Below, one piece after another: positions 2,995 to 58,796 of a stretch of DNA of 64,000 nucleotides. The notes beneath the pieces were generated by a model. The model searched no databases and was not told the origin of the DNA. It saw only the letters and a program-made list of their open reading frames with translations. Source of the DNA: Octopus vulgaris (taxonomy: Eukaryota); contig OX597822.1 in NCBI GenBank assembly GCA_951406725.2, positions 100,688,001 through 100,752,000 on the forward strand, in the 5' to 3' direction. Both the position numbers and the translations under genes were made by a program. Positions within the stretch are counted from its first letter, which is position 1, and every line of letters begins with the position of its first letter.

Positions 2995-3135
2995 CAAAGG
3001 CAAATCATTCATATTGTATACGATAACACCTTGGTACTGCTCAGTATTTTCTGTGATTCTGCCAAGACCAGCTTTCATTATGTGGTTTCCATATAAGAAC
3101 TGTTGTTCTGCATTTGGCTTCAACCATATTTTGTA
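2995..3135 (-). CDS. NIP7: NIP7 coding exon 4 (PUA domain part); final exon not found in window
   Basis: TAG acceptor, GTAAG donor, 141 nt; [47 protein letters not shown]. Confidence 0.96.
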
Positions 3136-3424
3136 CTAGAGAGAGAAATTACATTTAAATGGTCAATTATAACACAATATATATATATTTACACACACAT
3201 TTATTTATATACATATATATAATAATAATAATAATAATTATTTGAGGGAATATAACACGTGTTGTTATTCTACCAATTATATACGTTTTTATTATTTTTT
3301 TTTGCAATTTACTTAATCATCGGTATTTTATTATTTTAATTTTAATATTTCTATTATATGTAATTTTCTAGATGGTGTAATTTAATTGTTCATTTTGAAT
3401 TGATAAAAGGTGCTTTTTTTCTAA

Positions 3425-3812
3425 TAGGGGTAGCCATATTGAAATGGCAAATATACGTCACGATGTGTTATCGCTACTGTATATAACTCACTTTGATATT
3501 TATAATTGTTTGATTTCACTTTTTCAATATCAGCGACAGTGGACGCTGGAAAAAGTATAAGTATTTGTGAAGGAAATCTAATTCTCGGCGACAACTATGA
3601 TTGTCACACGCTGACGAGAGGTCAATACCTCAAAACTCGAGTCCGTGTGTATCATAAGTTGAAGACGGGAAGGATGACTTCCCTTTGCAAATACTGACAG
3701 GACACAGAAAGTGTGTCTATGGCCAGCTGGAGGAGTGTGTCCTCCTGGGGCTAAAAACTACAGTAGCATCCACCCTTAGGGGTAGCCATATTGAAATGGC
3801 AAATATACGTCA

Positions 3813-3816
<4 letters not shown>
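3425..3816 (+). mobile_element. Retrozyme-like / Penelope pLTR-like unit: 352-bp monomer with 40-bp terminal direct repeat
   Basis: TAGGGGTAGCCATATTGAAATGGCAAATATACGTCACGAT is identical at 3425-3464 and 3777-3816; central hammerhead motif; followed by (TA)n. Confidence 0.7.
3596..3656 (+). ncRNA. Type-I hammerhead motif with G12A substitution
   Basis: CACACG-CTGACGA-GAGGT caat ACCTC-AAAA-CTCGAG-TC-CGTGTG with outer TATGAT/ATCATA pairing; GAAA replaced by AAAA. Confidence 0.8.
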
Positions 3817-3881
<65 letters not shown>

Positions 3882-5081: not shown

Positions 5082-5220
5082 CTTAGCGTAAGGAGCAAGA
5101 AAATCCAATGCAGTGACATGAAGCCGAAATTTGCGAGTTTTGGTGAACTTGCCAAAACAGGTGCCAAAACTTCTTAAGTTCTCTCTGGAAACATGACAAG
5201 CCTTTTTCATTAAACTTTCT
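5082..5220 (-). CDS. NIP7: NIP7 coding exon 3
   Basis: TTTTTCAG acceptor, GT donor, 139 nt; [46 protein letters not shown] contains the [10 protein letters not shown] motif of NIP7. Confidence 0.96.
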
Positions 5221-7575
5221 CTGAAAAACCACAAAAAAAAAAAAACATTCAAGTTTGAAAATAAAATGGCACAGATGCACTGAGCAGAAACTGACATAGA
5301 ATCCCTTAACTGTTAACAGTTCTTAAAGGGGTACATGCACTGTAAGAATTGATATACTCCACTTAAGTAATTCAATATCACCATAGTTATTTTACTCAAT
5401 AGGAATGTCTCTACATACAAGTTTGATTCCCTGCTCCTGGGTATTACCGGGTACCTCAGCTAGTTTTATATAAAATTATTCAATCATATTGGGCATCAAC
5501 ACTCAGCAGTGAGTGACTATATTTCATCAAGAAATAGTTCTCTGAGCAGCAAAGAGACATTTACCTTGTCTCATCTGTAAGACCAAATTACTAACAGCTA
5601 AAATTTACTGATCAGTTTAGCAATGAGTTTTCTTCATAAGATCTGAATACACACTCAATCTGTGTGTATATTTTTTTCACAGCTTAACCCATGTTATCAA
5701 TATTTTCTTTGTGTACACTAACTTCCTCAGTCTCCATCAAATTTATTAAACTTTTAAATGATTACCATGCACATGACAATTTATTATTAGTTGGCAGACA
5801 TCACACATCAGTAAATAATTTGCATGCTGAATCCTATAAACAAGAACCAAAACTCTGGTTAGATTTATTGGTCTGGGGGTAGCTTTGGCTAAGAAGATAT
5901 GCAACAAGGTCAAAACACTGGAATCCCAAAGTCCCTTACCCACACTGAATTAAGTGTGTTATGAACAGTAAGTATATAGATATGGGTATAAAGAGATAGA
6001 TAGATGTGAATGTCTTCCTGAGGCTAAAAACAACAGTAACACCATCTTCTATAGGACTGCAACATTTAGTTGACAAATATATTTTATGAATAAACAGATA
6101 GGGATAAATAGATAAACAAATAAATGGATGAAAAAGTTCAAAATTTAAAATTGGGGGAGGGGTGAGATTTGGGTCCCTCATTAAACTTTATAATGTTAAT
6201 ACTTGTTTCTCAAAATGATGTACATTTAATTTACATTAAATTATTATTTACGATTATTTAAGGCAAACACAAGTAAAACGTAAATTCTTTTCATTTTAAT
6301 GCTTTTGTCTGTATTTAATTTTGATTTGCATATGTTCGTCAATAAGCTACAATTTCTTTAAAGTAAATAAAATTTTTAAAATGTTAACGGGGGAGAGGGG
6401 TGAATTAAACAAATTTTTTTTGCATATTTCTAATCTCTGACATCTAAAACGTAGGAATCCGAAAAAACTTTTTAAAAAAAAAATGCTTTTTTCAAGGAGA
6501 GGTGCGAAACTGCACTAGCCCCGTTTGTTCCATTGTTTGTCCTTACTTCCATTTTCCGAAGCAAGTATGGATCAAACAAATATACTACCAAGGTATTGTT
6601 TCACAACCAGATGCCCTTCCTGTCATTAACCCTTACCTATTTTTCAAGAAAGGGATCTTTTATTTCATTCACCTTCGAAGGCAATGAGCAAATGATTCCT
6701 TGACATAAGTGGCAACATTACTTTCAAACAGCATGAATGTAAATACACATGCACACATCAGCATTTAGATGTCCTTGTTCCATGCTGGCATTGTGCTCCA
6801 CTGTCTTCTTTGGGTCGGATGCCTTTTCTAACGCTAACCACTTTACAATATGTACTGGATGCTTTTTTTTTTTTTTTTTTTGCAAGCCACAAGCACTAGT
6901 GAGGATACTATGCACTTGCCAGATTATGACCCCTATGAGTAGAAGCTTTGTTAGGGGATGAGGAGTTTATATATCATCATCATCATCGTTTAACATCCAC
7001 TTTCCATGCTGGCATGGGTTGGACGATTTGACTGAGGACTAGTGAACCGGATGGCTGCACCAGGCCCCAATCTTGATCTGGCAGAGTTTCTACAGCTGGA
7101 TGCCCTTCCTAACGCTAACCACTCCGAGAGTGTAGTGGGTGCTACAGTTAGGCGGTACTGGCAACAGCCACGCTCAAATGGTGCTTTTTATGTGCCACCT
7201 GCACAGGAGCCAGTCCAGCGGCACTGGCAACGACCTCGCTCGAATGTTTTTTCACGTGCCACCAGCACAAGTGTTAGTAAGGTGACGCAGGTAACGATCA
7301 CACTCAAATGGTGTTTTTAACGTGCCATCAGCACAAAGGCCAGCTTGTTGCTCTGGCAACGATCTCACTCGTATGGTACTCTTAGCGCTCCACTAGCAAC
7401 AGATGCCAAAACAGACTTCTTTCATTTCCATCTTCCAAATTATTCTCAAAGCTTTAGTCAGCTGCCAAATGCAAGAACTATTTTCATCACTCTAATCCAA
7501 CCTACCCGTCACCCTTCAATTATTCTCAACTCATGCCAGCATAGAACAAGGACATTAATGATGATGATGATGGTG

Positions 7576-7805: not shown

Positions 7806-7892
7806 TTGCAGTAATAAATCCTTTCCTTATGTAAACGGAAACAATACTTTCCATCAGTTCTTTCCAACAGTTGTGAAATGTTATCTCCAATA
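7806..7892 (-). CDS. NIP7: NIP7 coding exon 2
   Basis: TTTTCAG acceptor, GTAAG donor, 87 nt; reads IGDNISQLLERTDGKYCFRLHKERIYYC(K); phase consistent with exons 1 and 3. Confidence 0.95.
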
Positions 7893-10413: not shown

Positions 10414-10469
10414 TATTTAGTTAATTTTTCAAAAAATAATTTACATTCATCGTCCGTGAGGGGCCTCAT
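10414..10469 (-). CDS. NIP7: NIP7 (60S ribosome biogenesis protein) coding exon 1
   Basis: ATG at 10469-10467 reads MRPLTDDECKLFFEKLTK(Y), matching the NIP7 N-terminus MRPLTEEE...FEK..KY; ends at a GTAAGT donor; 56 nt. Confidence 0.95.
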
Positions 10470-12712: not shown

Positions 12713-13199
12713 ATGTCCTTTTTCCTGGCCCCTCCTTAATTCTTCTGTCCCTCTGCTTCTACTTCTCTCTTCTCTTCCCACATGACCGCCAGTTAGCCAA
12801 GCCTGCTCTTTCTTTCTTGGTCTGACCCTTGTCCGTGCAACATCGATATTCTTCCCTGTGTTTGTGAAATTATTAAATCTCTGCCACAAGGCTTCATTTC
12901 CACACGCTCTCTCTCTTTCTATCGGCGATCTGGCAGAAACGTTAGCGCGCCGGGCGAAGTGCTTAGCGGTATTTCGTCTGTCGTTATGTTCTGAGTTCAA
13001 ATTCCGCCGAGGTCGACTTTGCCTTTCATCCTTTCGGAGTCGATAAATAAAGTACCACTTTCGCACTGGGGTCGATGTAATCGACTTACTCCCTTTGCCT
13101 GTCCTTGTTTGTCCCCTCTATGTTTAGCCCCTTGTGTGCAGTAAAGAAATATATATATATATAGAGAGAGAGAGATGAGAAAGTTGGTTTGTGAAAGCA

Positions 13200-15828
13200 C
13201 GTGGTTGAATATATAGAAAATAGTAAAAAGTGAAAAAACTACAGAAGGCTTGTTTTAAAAGGTTAAAAAATATATATTTGAGTCAATATGTCTGAAGAAT
13301 GTTATAAATTTTTTTCTTACAATGACATAATTTAGAAGAAATGACCGGTTTCGCGTTCAGCTTTTCAAATTTCTTACATCGTTATGTTTACGTTGAGAAG
13401 TGTTATCGTTATGTTTATGTTGAGGAGAGTTCCAGATAAGGGGAGGTAATAAGTGATTTCTTCCGGTGTAAGGGAGATAATCGCTTAAAATTTATTGCCT
13501 TTCTTTTGGAGTGAATTTCTCTGTAAAAGTATGTTGGAATAGTTAAGTTTGGGCTTGTATTTTTCAATGAAGAATGTTTCCTTGTTTAGTCTAATTTGTG
13601 TTGGTGTTCCGATAGCACATTGGTAAAATGGAAAGATTAAAAATTGTGGTAGTAGTTGCTTTCCGCATTTCTCAATGTGCTCACTAAAAGGTATCATTCT
13701 GTATTCTGGGAATGCAATCTGTTGTCGATGCAGTGTGCATCTACGTCTGAGTGATAGTCCCGTGGACCCCACGTAGTCTTGGTGGCAGCCCAAGCATTTT
13801 ATGACATAAATTATGTTTTCAGAGGCACAAGTAAAATTAGATTTGATCTTGAATTTCTGTCCCTCTTTGAAGAGGAATTCTGATTCTTCTAGCAGGTTTG
13901 GACATGTTGCACAGTTCGGTCCACCACATTTTTTTTACTTTTGCATCCGTAATTTCAGAAAACAATTTTGCCCTTGTGAGAATCTTTTTAAGTGATTTAG
14001 GTTGTTTGTAGCTTTTAATGATTTGGTGTATGTTTAGAATTTCCTTTAATTTGGGGTCCTTATGAAGTATTGGTAAATTCTGGGTGATGATGGTGAAGGC
14101 TTCTTTGTTTCTGGGGTTGTATGTGGATATGTAAGGTAGTATTTTCGGGGAAGGTGTGTTGTTGTGTTGAACTTTTCTTAAAGTTTCTATGTTGATTTCT
14201 GTTGCACGTCTGATCCCATCCTCTATGAGTTGAGCTGGGTAATGTCTGTCAATTAGGGTGTTTTTGAGTTCTTGCAGTCTAAAGTTCCTGGTATTTTGTT
14301 CTGACACTACTGTGCATATCCTTCTTGCAAGGTTGAAGGGGATGTTTGTTTTAGTGTGTCTTGGGTGGCATGAATTAAAAAGAAGGTATTGTTTGGCGTC
14401 TGTGGCTTTGTAAAAAATGTCTGTTTCTATTTTAAGGTTAATTTTTTAAATTAGTATATCCAAGAATGGGAGCTCCTTTTGGTTGTATTCCATTGTGAAC
14501 TGTATATTTGGGTTTATGCTGTTCAATAGGTTTTTAAATTTTAGGAGTTTATCTGTGTTTTCATTTCAGAGTATAAAACAATCGTCCAGGAATCGTTTCC
14601 AATTCTCTTTTATGTATTGAGAGAGGGGTTTCCAAAGATTGATAAAGATTCCTGGTAAATGATTATTTCCAGGTAGCCCATTGTTAGGTTCGCAATGACT
14701 GGTGCTGCCCTTGTACCCATAGCAATTCTGGATTTTTGACGGTAAAATGTATTGTCAAACATGAAGTGGTTATTATGTAGGATGAATTCAATTGATTTAG
14801 TAGTGAATTCTTTACTGATCCTTTTTGGTATTTCTTCTGGAAATTGGTCCAGCCAGAACTGTATTGCCTCTAGTCCATAATTATGAGGTATACTGGTATA
14901 TAAGTTAACTACATCAAATGAAACCATGATTGTTTCTTCCTTGGCTTTTTTTGGAAGGTGGTTTAACATATCTAAGTCATCTCTGATATGGCTATCAATA
15001 TGTTTAAGGAAGGGTTTCAGGAGAATGTCCATAAATAGACTTAGTCTGTGTGTTTCACAGGTTGGGCCAGCTACAATGGGTCGTAGTTTTAGGTCCCCCG
15101 GGTTAGGTGTGTGTATGTATGTCTTTGGTGATTTTTTAATGGTTTCATTTATAATTTGGCTTTTATGAATTTTTGGCAGACCATAGAAGAGGCTAGGTTT
15201 GCATTTAAAGTTTGTTAGAAAGTCAATCTCTTTGGTTGTTAGTTCCTTTTCATGGGTTTTAATTAGTGAAGATAGAGTTTTCATTATTTTTTGTGGGGTG
15301 TAGTTGGTGATTTTTTCATAATGTAGGTCGTCATCAAGCAAGGAAATTACAAGATTTCTATAGTATGATGTATCCATTATTACAACTGCATTTCCCTTGT
15401 CTGCTTCCTTAATGGTTATATCCTCATCATTTTGAAGTTCTATCAGTTCTTTCCATTGTGTAGTGTTAAAATTTGAGTTAACTTTCTGTTTATGTATAGT
15501 ATGGTAGGGAAAGTTCTCAATGTGGTTACAGAATTCGTCAAGATCTTTATTTCTTCCTCTGTGTGGGATGTGTTCACTTTTGTTCTTGACTAGTGATTCA
15601 TCTTCAGTATTGAAACTGGTTGATGCTTCTGCTAGTCTTAATTTTCTGCAAAATTCTGTTATATTATCCTTGATTTCATTTAGGTTGGCTCTGCATGGAG
15701 TTGGTGTAAATTTGAGCCCTTTTGAGAGGATGTCAATTTTATGTTAGAAAGAGGTTTGGTTGAAAGATTGATTATCTTCGGTTTTTCCTTATTACTAGGT
15801 TCCATCCTGTGTCCTGGTGTCTCTGGTA
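13200..15828 (-). mobile_element. Penelope-like retroelement (RT + GIY-YIG endonuclease), near full length, frameshifted
   Basis: Candidate ATG at 15805; KIINLS..LSKGLKFTPTP N-terminus, YGLPKIHK, LRPIV, SFDVVNLYTSIP, AMGT, WKRFLDD, FLDILI, and IYVIKC..C...YVGST (GIY-YIG); stops and frameshifts present; 3' boundary approximate. Confidence 0.93.
13336..13375 (-). ncRNA. Minimal type-I hammerhead ribozyme motif (U3:A8 variant) in the Penelope 3' region
   Basis: AAGAAAT-TTGAAAA-GC tgaac GC-GAAA-CCGG-TC-ATTTCTT: 7-bp helix I, palindromic helix III ACCGGT, GUC site. Confidence 0.75.
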
Positions 15829-16006: not shown

Positions 16007-17180
16007 TATTAAAATATATTGCTTTTTCTAATAGATATTTTGGTCTTATATAAATACAAACGCCCGTGCGTGTGTAGCTTCCATTCTGAACTATATTGCT
16101 GTTACCCCAATATTTTAAGACAAAAGTCGACAGTAGTAAATTTTATGTGGATATTGGAGTCAAATGGAGGTAACAGACACATATCTTAAAATTGAGGTCT
16201 AACCAGTTTGACTATACCTCACCGGTGAGATTTAATAACATGAAGTATGCTGAGGTGTCACCAAACTGACAAAACATCACGTCCACTCGCCGCTGCATTC
16301 TATTTATAATTTCATTTAAATTTGATGGTTGTCTCCCCTGATTATTACATTCTATTATACATATACCATACAGTGGGATTTTGTTGCTATTTTTGGTATA
16401 TCGGAGAAAGGCTTCCTTTTTGGCTGGTATATGTGTAGTATAAATTAATGTTTCTGATAGAAGAGGTGGGAGACAGTGAAAACAGAAAAGAGGGAAGACA
16501 ACAATATATTGCACTTCCAACATTTTTTCAACTTGTCCAACACCATCATCATCATCGTTTAACGTCCGCTTTCCATGCCAGCATGGGTTGGATGAATGAC
16601 TGAGGGCTAGTGAACCAGATGGCTGTGCCAGGCTCCAATCTGATCTGGCAGAATTTCTACAGCTGGATGCCCTTCCTAACGCCAACCACTCCGAGAGTGT
16701 AGTGGGTGCTTTTACGTGCCACCGGCATGGGGGCCAGTCAGGCGGTACTGGCAACGACCTCACTCTAATCTTTTACACATGCCACCGGCACAGGTGCCAG
16801 TGAAGCGACGCTGGTAATGATCACACTCGAATGGTGCCCTTTTACGTGCCACCGGCAATGAAGCCGGTTAGCCACTCTGTCAACGATCACACTCATATGG
16901 TGCACTTTGCACCCCGCTAGCACGGATGCATATAAAATTATTTGTTTAGTTTGTCTCTGCAGATATTCTTTAGAAACTATAGCCAGCACTGATTTTTGTT
17001 ACTACGCTTCGTATACGAGACGTCAGATGTAAATAAACAATGAGACCGAAGATGAAAAATGGCAAATTGGTGTGTATGCCATATTTTAAGGGTTTTTGCC
17101 CCTTCATCAGCACCCATCCAACCTATTATCCATCCTCGAACACATTGCTGAAATAACCATTATATATATAGCGGTGTATA

Positions 17181-30438: not shown

Positions 30439-31008
30439 CTATTGTAGCATCAGAGTCTTAAGATTGTCCTGTAAGATTTTAGACTTGACAGAATCGAATA
30501 CGAATCGAATATTTTCTGTATCAATTGCTGTCGTAAAATGGTGATAGAGTAGTCCAGACTTGTCGCGTCTTTTGTTATCAAACATGTCCAGTATAAAACT
30601 CTGGACGTCTGTAAGGGAATGTGGGTCCTTGTTGAAATTTGAAAAGTAGTCCTTAATGTTAATTTGTTTGACTTTCTCTTCCAGCAGATCAGTTTTATTC
30701 AAAAAGAGAATAAATGCCATCCCAGTAAACAATGGATAATTCACTAATGTTTCAAAAATATCACAGGACTCAACCAGCCTGTTGGTCATCCGGTCCTCTT
30801 GAAGAACTTGGTCAAATTCGCTGCTGGATACGAGGAACAGAATGGAGGTGACGTCGTCAAAACACTTGTACCATTTGGGCCGCTGTGACCTTTGACCACC
30901 AACATCAACAAATAAGAACGGAACACCACAAATCTTTATTGGATGCTCAACAATGCCTTTGGTAGCCTTTCTTGCTAACAGAATGTCAAGTTTAGATGGA
31001 ATGTAACT
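30439..31008 (-). CDS. G-protein alpha subunit, G12/13 class (GNA12/GNA13/concertina-like), terminal coding exon
   Basis: TTTCAG acceptor then [33 protein letters not shown] (G3), FLNKTDL (G4), [16 protein letters not shown] (G5), C-terminus NLKTLMLQ* typical of G12/13. Confidence 0.95.
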
Positions 31009-32515
31009 CTGAAATGAAATAAAAATAATAGTTACTATCATATTTCGTTTTTGGATTTGGTTTGCAAGATTCTTTAAGACTATTGAAAAGGTTGCAAGAC
31101 GCAATGAAAAAATTTTAGGAAAATAAAAATAAGAAATAAACGGAAATTTTACTGGTTAGTGTGTTACATTATAAGGCACAAAAAGAAAACGACTCTCCCC
31201 AGACACAACAGAGTTATTATCATAATACAGTAATAATAAGAAAAATCTATTTTAATAAAAGCGAAATTCTGTCTGTCTGAGACACCTATATCTCAGTCTA
31301 AATTTGCTCTACATAGACACATTATACCGTTTTGAAATCAGGATGATCCTAAGATTGAAAATCTGCCCTCCATTTGGTTCTTGACTATCCTGTATTGGGA
31401 TCTGATTTAAAAGCATTTAGGTTGCTATTTCTAGCAGGTACAGCTTGGCTGATTCATGCCATCTTGGTTGGTGTTTGTCAGATGATGTCAGAGATCAAGG
31501 GGGAAATAAATGACATTCACTTTGTTAATTTTACATTGAGATAAGAACTTTGGGACAAACTGGCCAACAGATGGAATTCAACTTGGGATTGGAACAATAG
31601 ATTGATTGCATTACAAGATTAAAACTAATTTGTCCTTATAGTTTTGGGCCCAATTAACCCTCCGCAGCTTTGTAATCTTTGGAAGACTGGAAACAAACAA
31701 CATTGCTTGTGAGCACTCAGTTTATACCTATCTTGTGATGTTACGATACATAGACACACATACATGCTCGCTCTCTCTCCCCCTTTTATGCAATCATACA
31801 CACACACACACACATCATCATCATCATCATCGTTTAACGTCTGCTTTCCATGCTAGCATGGGTTGGACGGTTCGACTGGGGTCTGGGAAACCAGGAGGCT
31901 GCACCAGGCCCAGTCTGATCTGGCAGTGTTTCTACAGCTGGATGCCCTACCTAATGCCAACCACTCCGTGAGTGTAGTAGGTGCTTTTTACGTGCCAGGC
32001 AAGGCTGGCAACGGCCATGATCGGTTGGTGCTTTTTACGTGCCACCGGCATGGAGGCCAGTCGAGGCGGTGCTGGCAACGGCCACGTTCGGATGGTTCTT
32101 TTACGTGCCACCGGCAATATTTAAAAATTTAACAAAAACACAACAAATGGAAAATTTTACAAAAACATAACAAAACAGAAAATTCGTAGCTAATAGATAG
32201 ATATTCTATGGGTTTACTTCAGTTTCTGAAGGATGGGACTATAGTAGAAGACATTTGTCTGAGTAACTGAGCAGTGGGACTGAACCTGAAACCATGTAGT
32301 TGGAAAGCAAACTTCTTAACTATAAAGCCATACATGTGCCTTCACAACAATGATAATTTTTTGAGGGCCTTGCGATGAGCGAGAGGGAGAGAATAAGTTA
32401 TTGTCAGACTGGAGATGAAGCCAGAATGTTTGCCCCAGAATGGACAATGCTAAAAGTACTCAAGGACTATTCAAAAAGTTGCAAGACGAAACGAAAATTT
32501 TAGGAAAATAAAAAT

Positions 32516-58610: not shown

Positions 58611-58643
58611 GAAAGAATGGAGTTGAACGACGAATTAACAAAA

Positions 58644-58742
58644 TTCCTTTATTTTCGACATATGTTTCGAAGGCTGCATATTCCTAATTTCGAAGGAATA
58701 AGGGGTGCATTATACCGCCTTCTCATCAGGAAAAACAAGGAA
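58644..58742 (-). ncRNA. Canonical type-I hammerhead ribozyme motif with extended helix II
   Basis: TTTTC-CTGATGA-GAAGGC...GCCTTC-GAAA-CATATG-TC-GAAAA; outer helix I TTCCTT/AAGGAA; helix II extension TGCA/TGCA and TATTCCT/AGGAATA. Confidence 0.88.
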
Positions 58743-58796
58743 CTTATGTCAGCATCAAGATGCACAAAAACTTTTAGATGACTGCCCACACGGAGC

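Follow-up and report, generated by a model that had tools for sequence, protein, structure and literature searches.

A dispersed 1.1-unit copy of an octopus hammerhead repeat, likely a non-autonomous retrozyme, in an intron of NIP7

Intron 3 of NIP7, a ribosome-assembly gene of Octopus vulgaris, contains a 392-base insert that carries a hammerhead motif, begins and ends with the same 40 bases and abuts a (TA)n microsatellite. What kind of element left this insert behind, and from what template? A sequence-only reading of the locus had proposed an integrated copy of a ribozyme circRNA of ~352 nt, with a remnant of a tandem Penelope pLTR as the alternative. The window analysed here is a 64,000-nucleotide stretch of contig OX597822.1 (positions 100,688,001 to 100,752,000), and all coordinates refer to it. 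The coding exons of NIP7, assigned from translations and junctions, lie on the minus strand at 10414-10469, 7806-7892, 5082-5220 and 2995-3135; exon 3 (5082-5220) corresponds to PF17833 and exon 4 (2995-3135) to PF03657, both above the Pfam cut-off. The insert, at 3425..3816 on the plus strand, is antisense to the gene and ends in (TA)n (3816-3877), as had been stated.

The insert consists of one 352-bp unit and a 40-bp terminal redundancy (1.1 units). Its two 40-mers (3425..3464 and 3777..3816, plus strand) are 100% identical at a spacing of 352, which bears out the exact redundancy and the unit length described before; low-complexity sequence aside, the 64-kb window has no other exact direct repeat of 40 bases at a distance of up to 1 kb. 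Because T3425 and the AT at 3815-3816 can equally well be assigned to the flanks, the strict redundancy is 37-40 bp. The first 40-mer holds a 5-bp hairpin (3433-3448), the stem of which is kept in diverged family variants, and the second forms the 3' end of the insert, a putative start of reverse transcription 173 bases downstream of the cut site. The microsatellite abutting this end (3816..3877) is the presumed insertion target, and comparison of the flanks at the locus revealed no target-site duplication. The GC content of the unit is 41.8%, and among the open reading frames over the insert none reached 100 codons. A scan with bacterial promoter and terminator models, which are not apt for an animal, gave nothing above chance. 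The unit RNA is predicted to fold stably both as a linear molecule (z = -5.98) and as a circle (z = -5.39), none of 100 shuffled sequences doing as well in either case.

The motif at 3596..3656 (plus strand) is a canonical type I hammerhead. Helix I has 6+6 bp (distal part 3596-3601/3651-3656, proximal part 3605-3610/3644-3649), helix II has 5 bp and a 4-nt loop (3618-3622/3627-3631), and helix III has 2 bp with a palindromic tetraloop, contained in a perfect 8-nt palindrome (3635-3642). The core CUGACGA occupies 3611-3617, the GUC is at 3641-3643 with the cut site after 3643, and the GAAA of the core is replaced by AAAA (3632-3635). Every element claimed for this hammerhead was found, including the change of GAAA to AAAA at a CpG. 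A strict pattern scan gave two matches in the window (3611, plus strand, and 58729, minus strand) and none in 30 dinucleotide-shuffled windows. Rfam did not call the hammerhead even at relaxed E values up to 1 and 10, returning low-complexity matches only, and exact-pattern scans for the hammerhead or the 40-mer motif found no match in metagenome contigs, viral contigs or prokaryote genomes. Two strands of the palindrome (3635-3642) are predicted to pair at -12.1 kcal/mol, and such pairing through helix III would suit cleavage as a dimer. The altered position, 3632, is G12, the general base of the hammerhead as described in PMC6155905. It is A in the insert copy and G in the family, and lies within a CpG. 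Since the catalytic G12 is replaced, the hammerhead of the insert copy is predicted to be inactive.

More than half of the sampled words of the unit were present in 20 of the 24 listed public runs (13 studies, 9 organism labels). None of the listed runs with the unit is on record as RNA; for 8 of those 20 runs RNA is no more than a guessed label, which was counted neither for nor against expression. Contigs of four of the 24 runs (X2, X5, X11 and X17) were aligned to 3245-3816. On this 572-base stretch, left-flank repeat included, one DNA-type run yielded 6132 contigs, with 1227 at 99+% identity, 1944 at 95-99%, 2291 at 90-95% and 670 below 90%. As these contigs span a wide range of identity in a single run, the stretch of the unit must be multi-copy and comprise several subfamilies. 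The unit belongs to a many-copy family; a single-copy sequence, the finding that the sequence-only reading had named as counting against it, was not what the run contigs held. Nor do other copies lack the 40-mer, as would a target-site duplication: loose-end variants of the 40-mer in the family keep the small hairpin stem with an altered loop, so the 40-mer is part of the unit, and its interpretation as a target-site duplication was rejected.

The family consensus restores the GAAA core in all four runs compared. G at 3632 accounted for 346592.5 of 346973.7 in X2, 30.3 of 30.3 in X11, 23.6 of 23.6 in X17 and 219.8 of 256.9 in X5, where the remaining 37.1 aligned as an inserted G. Among the differences listed, only those at 3471, 3504 and 3632 are near-fixed between the insert and the family, and about 3 of the 352 bases separate the insert from its closest family variant. 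So few near-fixed differences suggest a young insertion, with assembly error at those sites also possible. In X5, one diverged contig (record 27, depth 23.5) seems to have a compensatory change from G-C to A-U at the base of helix II, changes in loop 2 and the core CUGAUGA; these changes were assigned to it by matching the depth of the listed differences. Related subfamilies are represented by 351-base contigs in X5 and X17 whose similarity to the unit is limited to its 3' part; in one of them the 3' half of the hammerhead differs. An X2 contig that jumps from 3807 to 3635 suggests a shortened unit.

Several features of the coverage were set aside. In X17 the left-flank repeat is uncovered and the unit fully covered, a gap that proves nothing and was not used. 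Beyond the cut site, the summed depth in X2 and X5 increases by a factor of about four or more, which could be read as short copies from cut RNA; this rise was not used either, because the depth is flat per contig and the region is common to other subfamilies. The fall in depth after 3783, a candidate second start of reverse transcription, is explained by the two places that the 40-mer fits and by an indel variant.

Does the unit close on itself? Record 9 of X17 has 383 bases, i.e. 353 + 30, as a cyclic contig at k=31 would, and covers 3431-3783 with five other letters. Among the joints listed, contigs of X2 and X17 contain go-back joints of 350-353 bases. The closed 353-base loop of X17, one run's contig, has no open reading frame and no branch to an arm carrying one, an observation that speaks against a parent with an ORF being the predominant form there. 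Since its redundancy exceeds 31 bases, the single copy of the insert already contains 352 of 352 circular 31-mers; therefore, a closed loop cannot separate circular RNA, tandem DNA and dispersed 1.1-unit copies. A large set of dispersed copies, each between flanks of its own, would be merged into this 353-base loop as well, at least 1.09 units per copy being sufficient, and as k=31 contigs cannot be phased across a 40-base repeat, the go-back joints also fit dispersed 1.1-unit copies. The contigs gave no direct view of a tandem array.

Two further sequences bear on how the insert arrived. By contig comparison, the left flank (3245..3425, plus strand) belongs to a second repeat family, of which it forms the 3' end and which has no relation to the unit. 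This repeat is covered by many contigs, has no listed majority difference from the runs at 3345-3424, is possibly also young, and in one DNA run continues into T/(TA)n without the unit. The simplest reading is that the unit was inserted at the junction of the left-flank repeat and the microsatellite with the loss of a few bases; alternatively, template jumping co-inserted the two, and the left-flank repeat may itself be the 3' end of a Penelope-like element (PLE). In the next NIP7 intron lies an older, 5'-truncated relic of the unit family (5998..6081, plus strand; unit positions ~301-383, 71% identical; blastn E 4.8e-7, nhmmer E 3.4e-4), with an alignment score of 49 that was reached by none of 200 shuffles. 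Its match is confined to the final ~85 bases of the unit, and its 3' end is near that of the insert, so that these two copies hint at a fixed 3' end with variable 5' truncation. The absence of a target-site duplication, the (TA)n target and the 3' end common to the truncated relic point to an insertion of Penelope type, as far as sequence can tell. In the supplement of PMC8557442 a (TA)n target is listed for all four octopus PLE families, a 30-40-bp 'tail' is given as a PLE hallmark in bioRxiv 10.1101/2021.04.23.441226, and in vitro the tail of a Penelope-like element matched two internal starts of reverse transcription (PMC11167929). The insert agrees with PLEs in its (TA)n site and in having no short target-site duplication; its redundancy of 37-40 bp compares with the 30-40-bp PLE tail between two starts, with one 3' end seen here.

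The closest known counterparts of the unit are the metazoan non-LTR retrozymes described by Cervera and de la Pena (2020, PMC7229834), with units of ~350-390 bp in mussel, 330/350 bp in axolotl and 220-240 bp in coral. We took as their diagnostic features a unit of 150-450 bp with GC below 45-50% and no protein ORF, a 6-bp helix I and a 4-5-bp helix II. Like those described in that paper, the octopus unit has a canonical type I hammerhead with a short palindromic helix III, a length of 352-353 bases, GC under 45%, no ORF, a strongly self-paired (predicted) RNA fold, many copies, and PLEs in the same genome. It differs in its cephalopod host and in that the copy studied is a dispersed 1.1-unit one with a mutated core and no target-site duplication; moreover, it is known from sequence alone. 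Li, Clavereau and Pollet (bioRxiv 10.64898/2026.07.22.740005) interpret non-LTR retrozymes as non-autonomous Penelope-like derivatives. In their mostly vertebrate material dispersed monomers are common, many of them intronic (~43% in Xenopus), and PLEs co-occur, as with the octopus unit; there, however, 24 of 57 Xenopus families match a catalogued element, nearly always PLE ends, whereas for the octopus unit no parent PLE was found. A PLE pLTR with its tail (PMC8557442, Craig et al. 2021; PMC4209133, Cervera and de la Pena 2014; PMC11167929, Frangieh et al. 2024) is similar to the insert in the terminal extension of 30-40 bases, the AT-rich or (TA)n target, 5' truncation and a hammerhead that precedes the 3' end. 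The insert, in contrast, has no RT-EN ORF, has a canonical rather than a minimal hammerhead, and belongs to a unit that closes at 352 bases. According to PMC4209133, animal PLE hammerheads are usually minimal (long helix II, short helix I), some variants having a small palindromic helix III. In cephalopods, the giant squid genome paper (PMC6962438) lists 235 hammerhead-1 matches, given without description where we consulted it. We found no report of a cephalopod retrozyme in the literature, where the supplements of PMC7229834 and bioRxiv 10.64898/2026.07.22.740005 may list octopus.

Taken together, we regard it as likely that the insert is a dispersed 1.1-unit copy of an octopus repeat, itself likely a non-autonomous retrozyme, that was probably pasted recently into (TA)n by a Penelope-like reverse transcriptase and endonuclease. 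By analogy with known retrozymes, tandem source copies would be transcribed, and the hammerheads, probably as dimers via helix III, would cut after GUC to give a unit-length RNA that a host ligase could close. A Penelope-type protein would then nick AT-rich DNA and reverse transcription would start internally, ~170 bases downstream of the cut site, thereby fixing the 3' end. If the insert arose by reverse transcription, a cut linear monomer did not serve as the template: the 392 bases of the insert cross an intact GUC and run 40 bases past one unit, whereas such a monomer could give at most 173 bases, so that the template would have been either a circle or an uncut tandem transcript. Under this explanation an uncut tandem transcript is a template that we lean towards with little confidence, and a ligated circle is a serious candidate that falls just short of probable; in vitro, unprocessed RNA was the main template of a Penelope-like protein (PMC11167929). 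The A at G12 would have arisen by CpG decay, and the insert copy would be unable to cut; being antisense, it would not cut NIP7 pre-mRNA in any case.

The rival that fares best is a special case of this explanation, in which the insert is the direct product of reverse transcription once round a covalently closed 352-nt circular RNA plus 40 bases. We hold this only tentatively. The insert does cross the intact cut site and exceed one unit, the predicted circular fold is stable (see above), one run with a guessed RNA label yields a cyclic contig of 353 bases, and retrozymes of mussel, coral and axolotl accumulate as circles according to PMC7229834. An uncut tandem transcript primed internally would, however, yield the same product, judging from PMC11167929; the cyclic contig follows from any copies of at least 1.09 units, and identical 40-mers are expected at ~1% divergence under either model. 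Of the circRNA proposal, the retrozyme-type unit therefore stands, being multi-copy, with the 40-mer inside it and closure at 352-353 bases without an ORF, while its 1.1 units do not single out a circular template.

A second rival, in which 5' truncation of a partial tandem left a pLTR-plus-tail remnant of an autonomous, ORF-bearing Penelope-like element, appears unlikely. The 30-40-bp tail, the (TA)n target, the lack of a target-site duplication and the hammerhead are all PLE features, and the window contains a PLE and two more hammerhead-like relics. Against this, the family runs from the 40-mer into 3465 onward and back to its own start at 352-353 bases, the X17 contig is unbranched and lacks an ORF arm, the hammerhead is canonical where pLTRs usually have the minimal type, neither end of the PLE in the window resembles the unit, and at the locus no RT-GIY-YIG ORF flanks the insert. 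In addition, none of seven short motifs from the unit and the left flank occurs in the supplement of PMC8557442, a text in which line breaks could hide a match. A plain ORF-bearing pLTR is thus disfavoured, yet it is not a clean rival: as non-LTR retrozymes are read as non-autonomous Penelope derivatives (bioRxiv 10.64898/2026.07.22.740005), the two alternatives proposed before largely merge.

The Penelope-like element of the window (13170-15800, minus strand) is broken, with a reverse transcriptase followed by GIY-YIG in three frames. The corresponding frames at 13485-15743 (minus strand) score below the curated Pfam cut-off for both domains, and a CX4CxxC motif preceding the endonuclease suggests the Neptune/Nematis type. 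A partial hammerhead-like core is found downstream of the element, near 13340-13360, and a degraded hammerhead-like motif with a fold not above shuffles upstream of the PLE region (17055-17125, minus strand). The second hammerhead (58640-58745, minus strand) has its core at 58729, an intact GAAA and a long extended helix II (z -3.98); the ~190-base insert around it is flanked by (TA)n at either end and is likely a pLTR relic from a PLE of another family. Compared with the ends of the PLE in the window and with the two further hammerhead relics, the unit gave no forward or reverse score exceeding shuffles; a link to them was rejected, and these comparisons yielded no partner element. By eye only, and possibly by chance, 3427-3450 (the start of the 40-mer with the 5-bp hairpin) resembles part of the Octopus minor Naiad consensus in the PMC8557442 supplement, close to the 5' end of that consensus, which would be a lead to the mobilising partner. 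Elsewhere in the window, a G-protein alpha 12/13 exon (30442-31152, minus strand) is 95% identical to a cluster named for Argonauta hians, the next named matches being at 73% or less, which places the window among the octopods.

A satellite DNA with a hammerhead, one orphan unit of which was moved as DNA by an extrachromosomal circle or recombination with no RNA step, is a very improbable source of the insert. Integration of a small DNA circle or array fragment can also leave 1.1 units, and go-back joints are present in a DNA-type run; but the orientation-specific abutment to (TA)n and the truncated relic with a similar 3' end better fit target-primed reverse transcription, and the variants preserve the structure of the hammerhead and the hairpins.

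The retrozyme reading is right at the level of the family: the octopus unit adds a cephalopod member, new and apparently unreported, to the known non-LTR retrozymes. Within its NIP7 intron, the single insert is most likely no more than a dead passenger. The finding extends a known class of elements to octopods and provides a clean example of a dispersed copy that is young and bears the marks of Penelope-type insertion. We think it rather doubtful, if worth stating, that this is an active cephalopod family making 352-353-nt circular RNAs, with a Penelope-type reverse transcriptase that primes internally and runs round the circles; if true, the 1.x-unit insertions, with their fixed 3' end, would document across the whole genome that circular templates were reverse-transcribed, and the circle model of retrozymes would be joined to the internal-priming and tail model of PLEs. 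How animal retrozymes return to the genome, from a circle or a tandem transcript and by which enzyme, has so far been only proposed, and a young many-copy family with an apparently fixed 3' end would make the route testable from end maps of an existing assembly.
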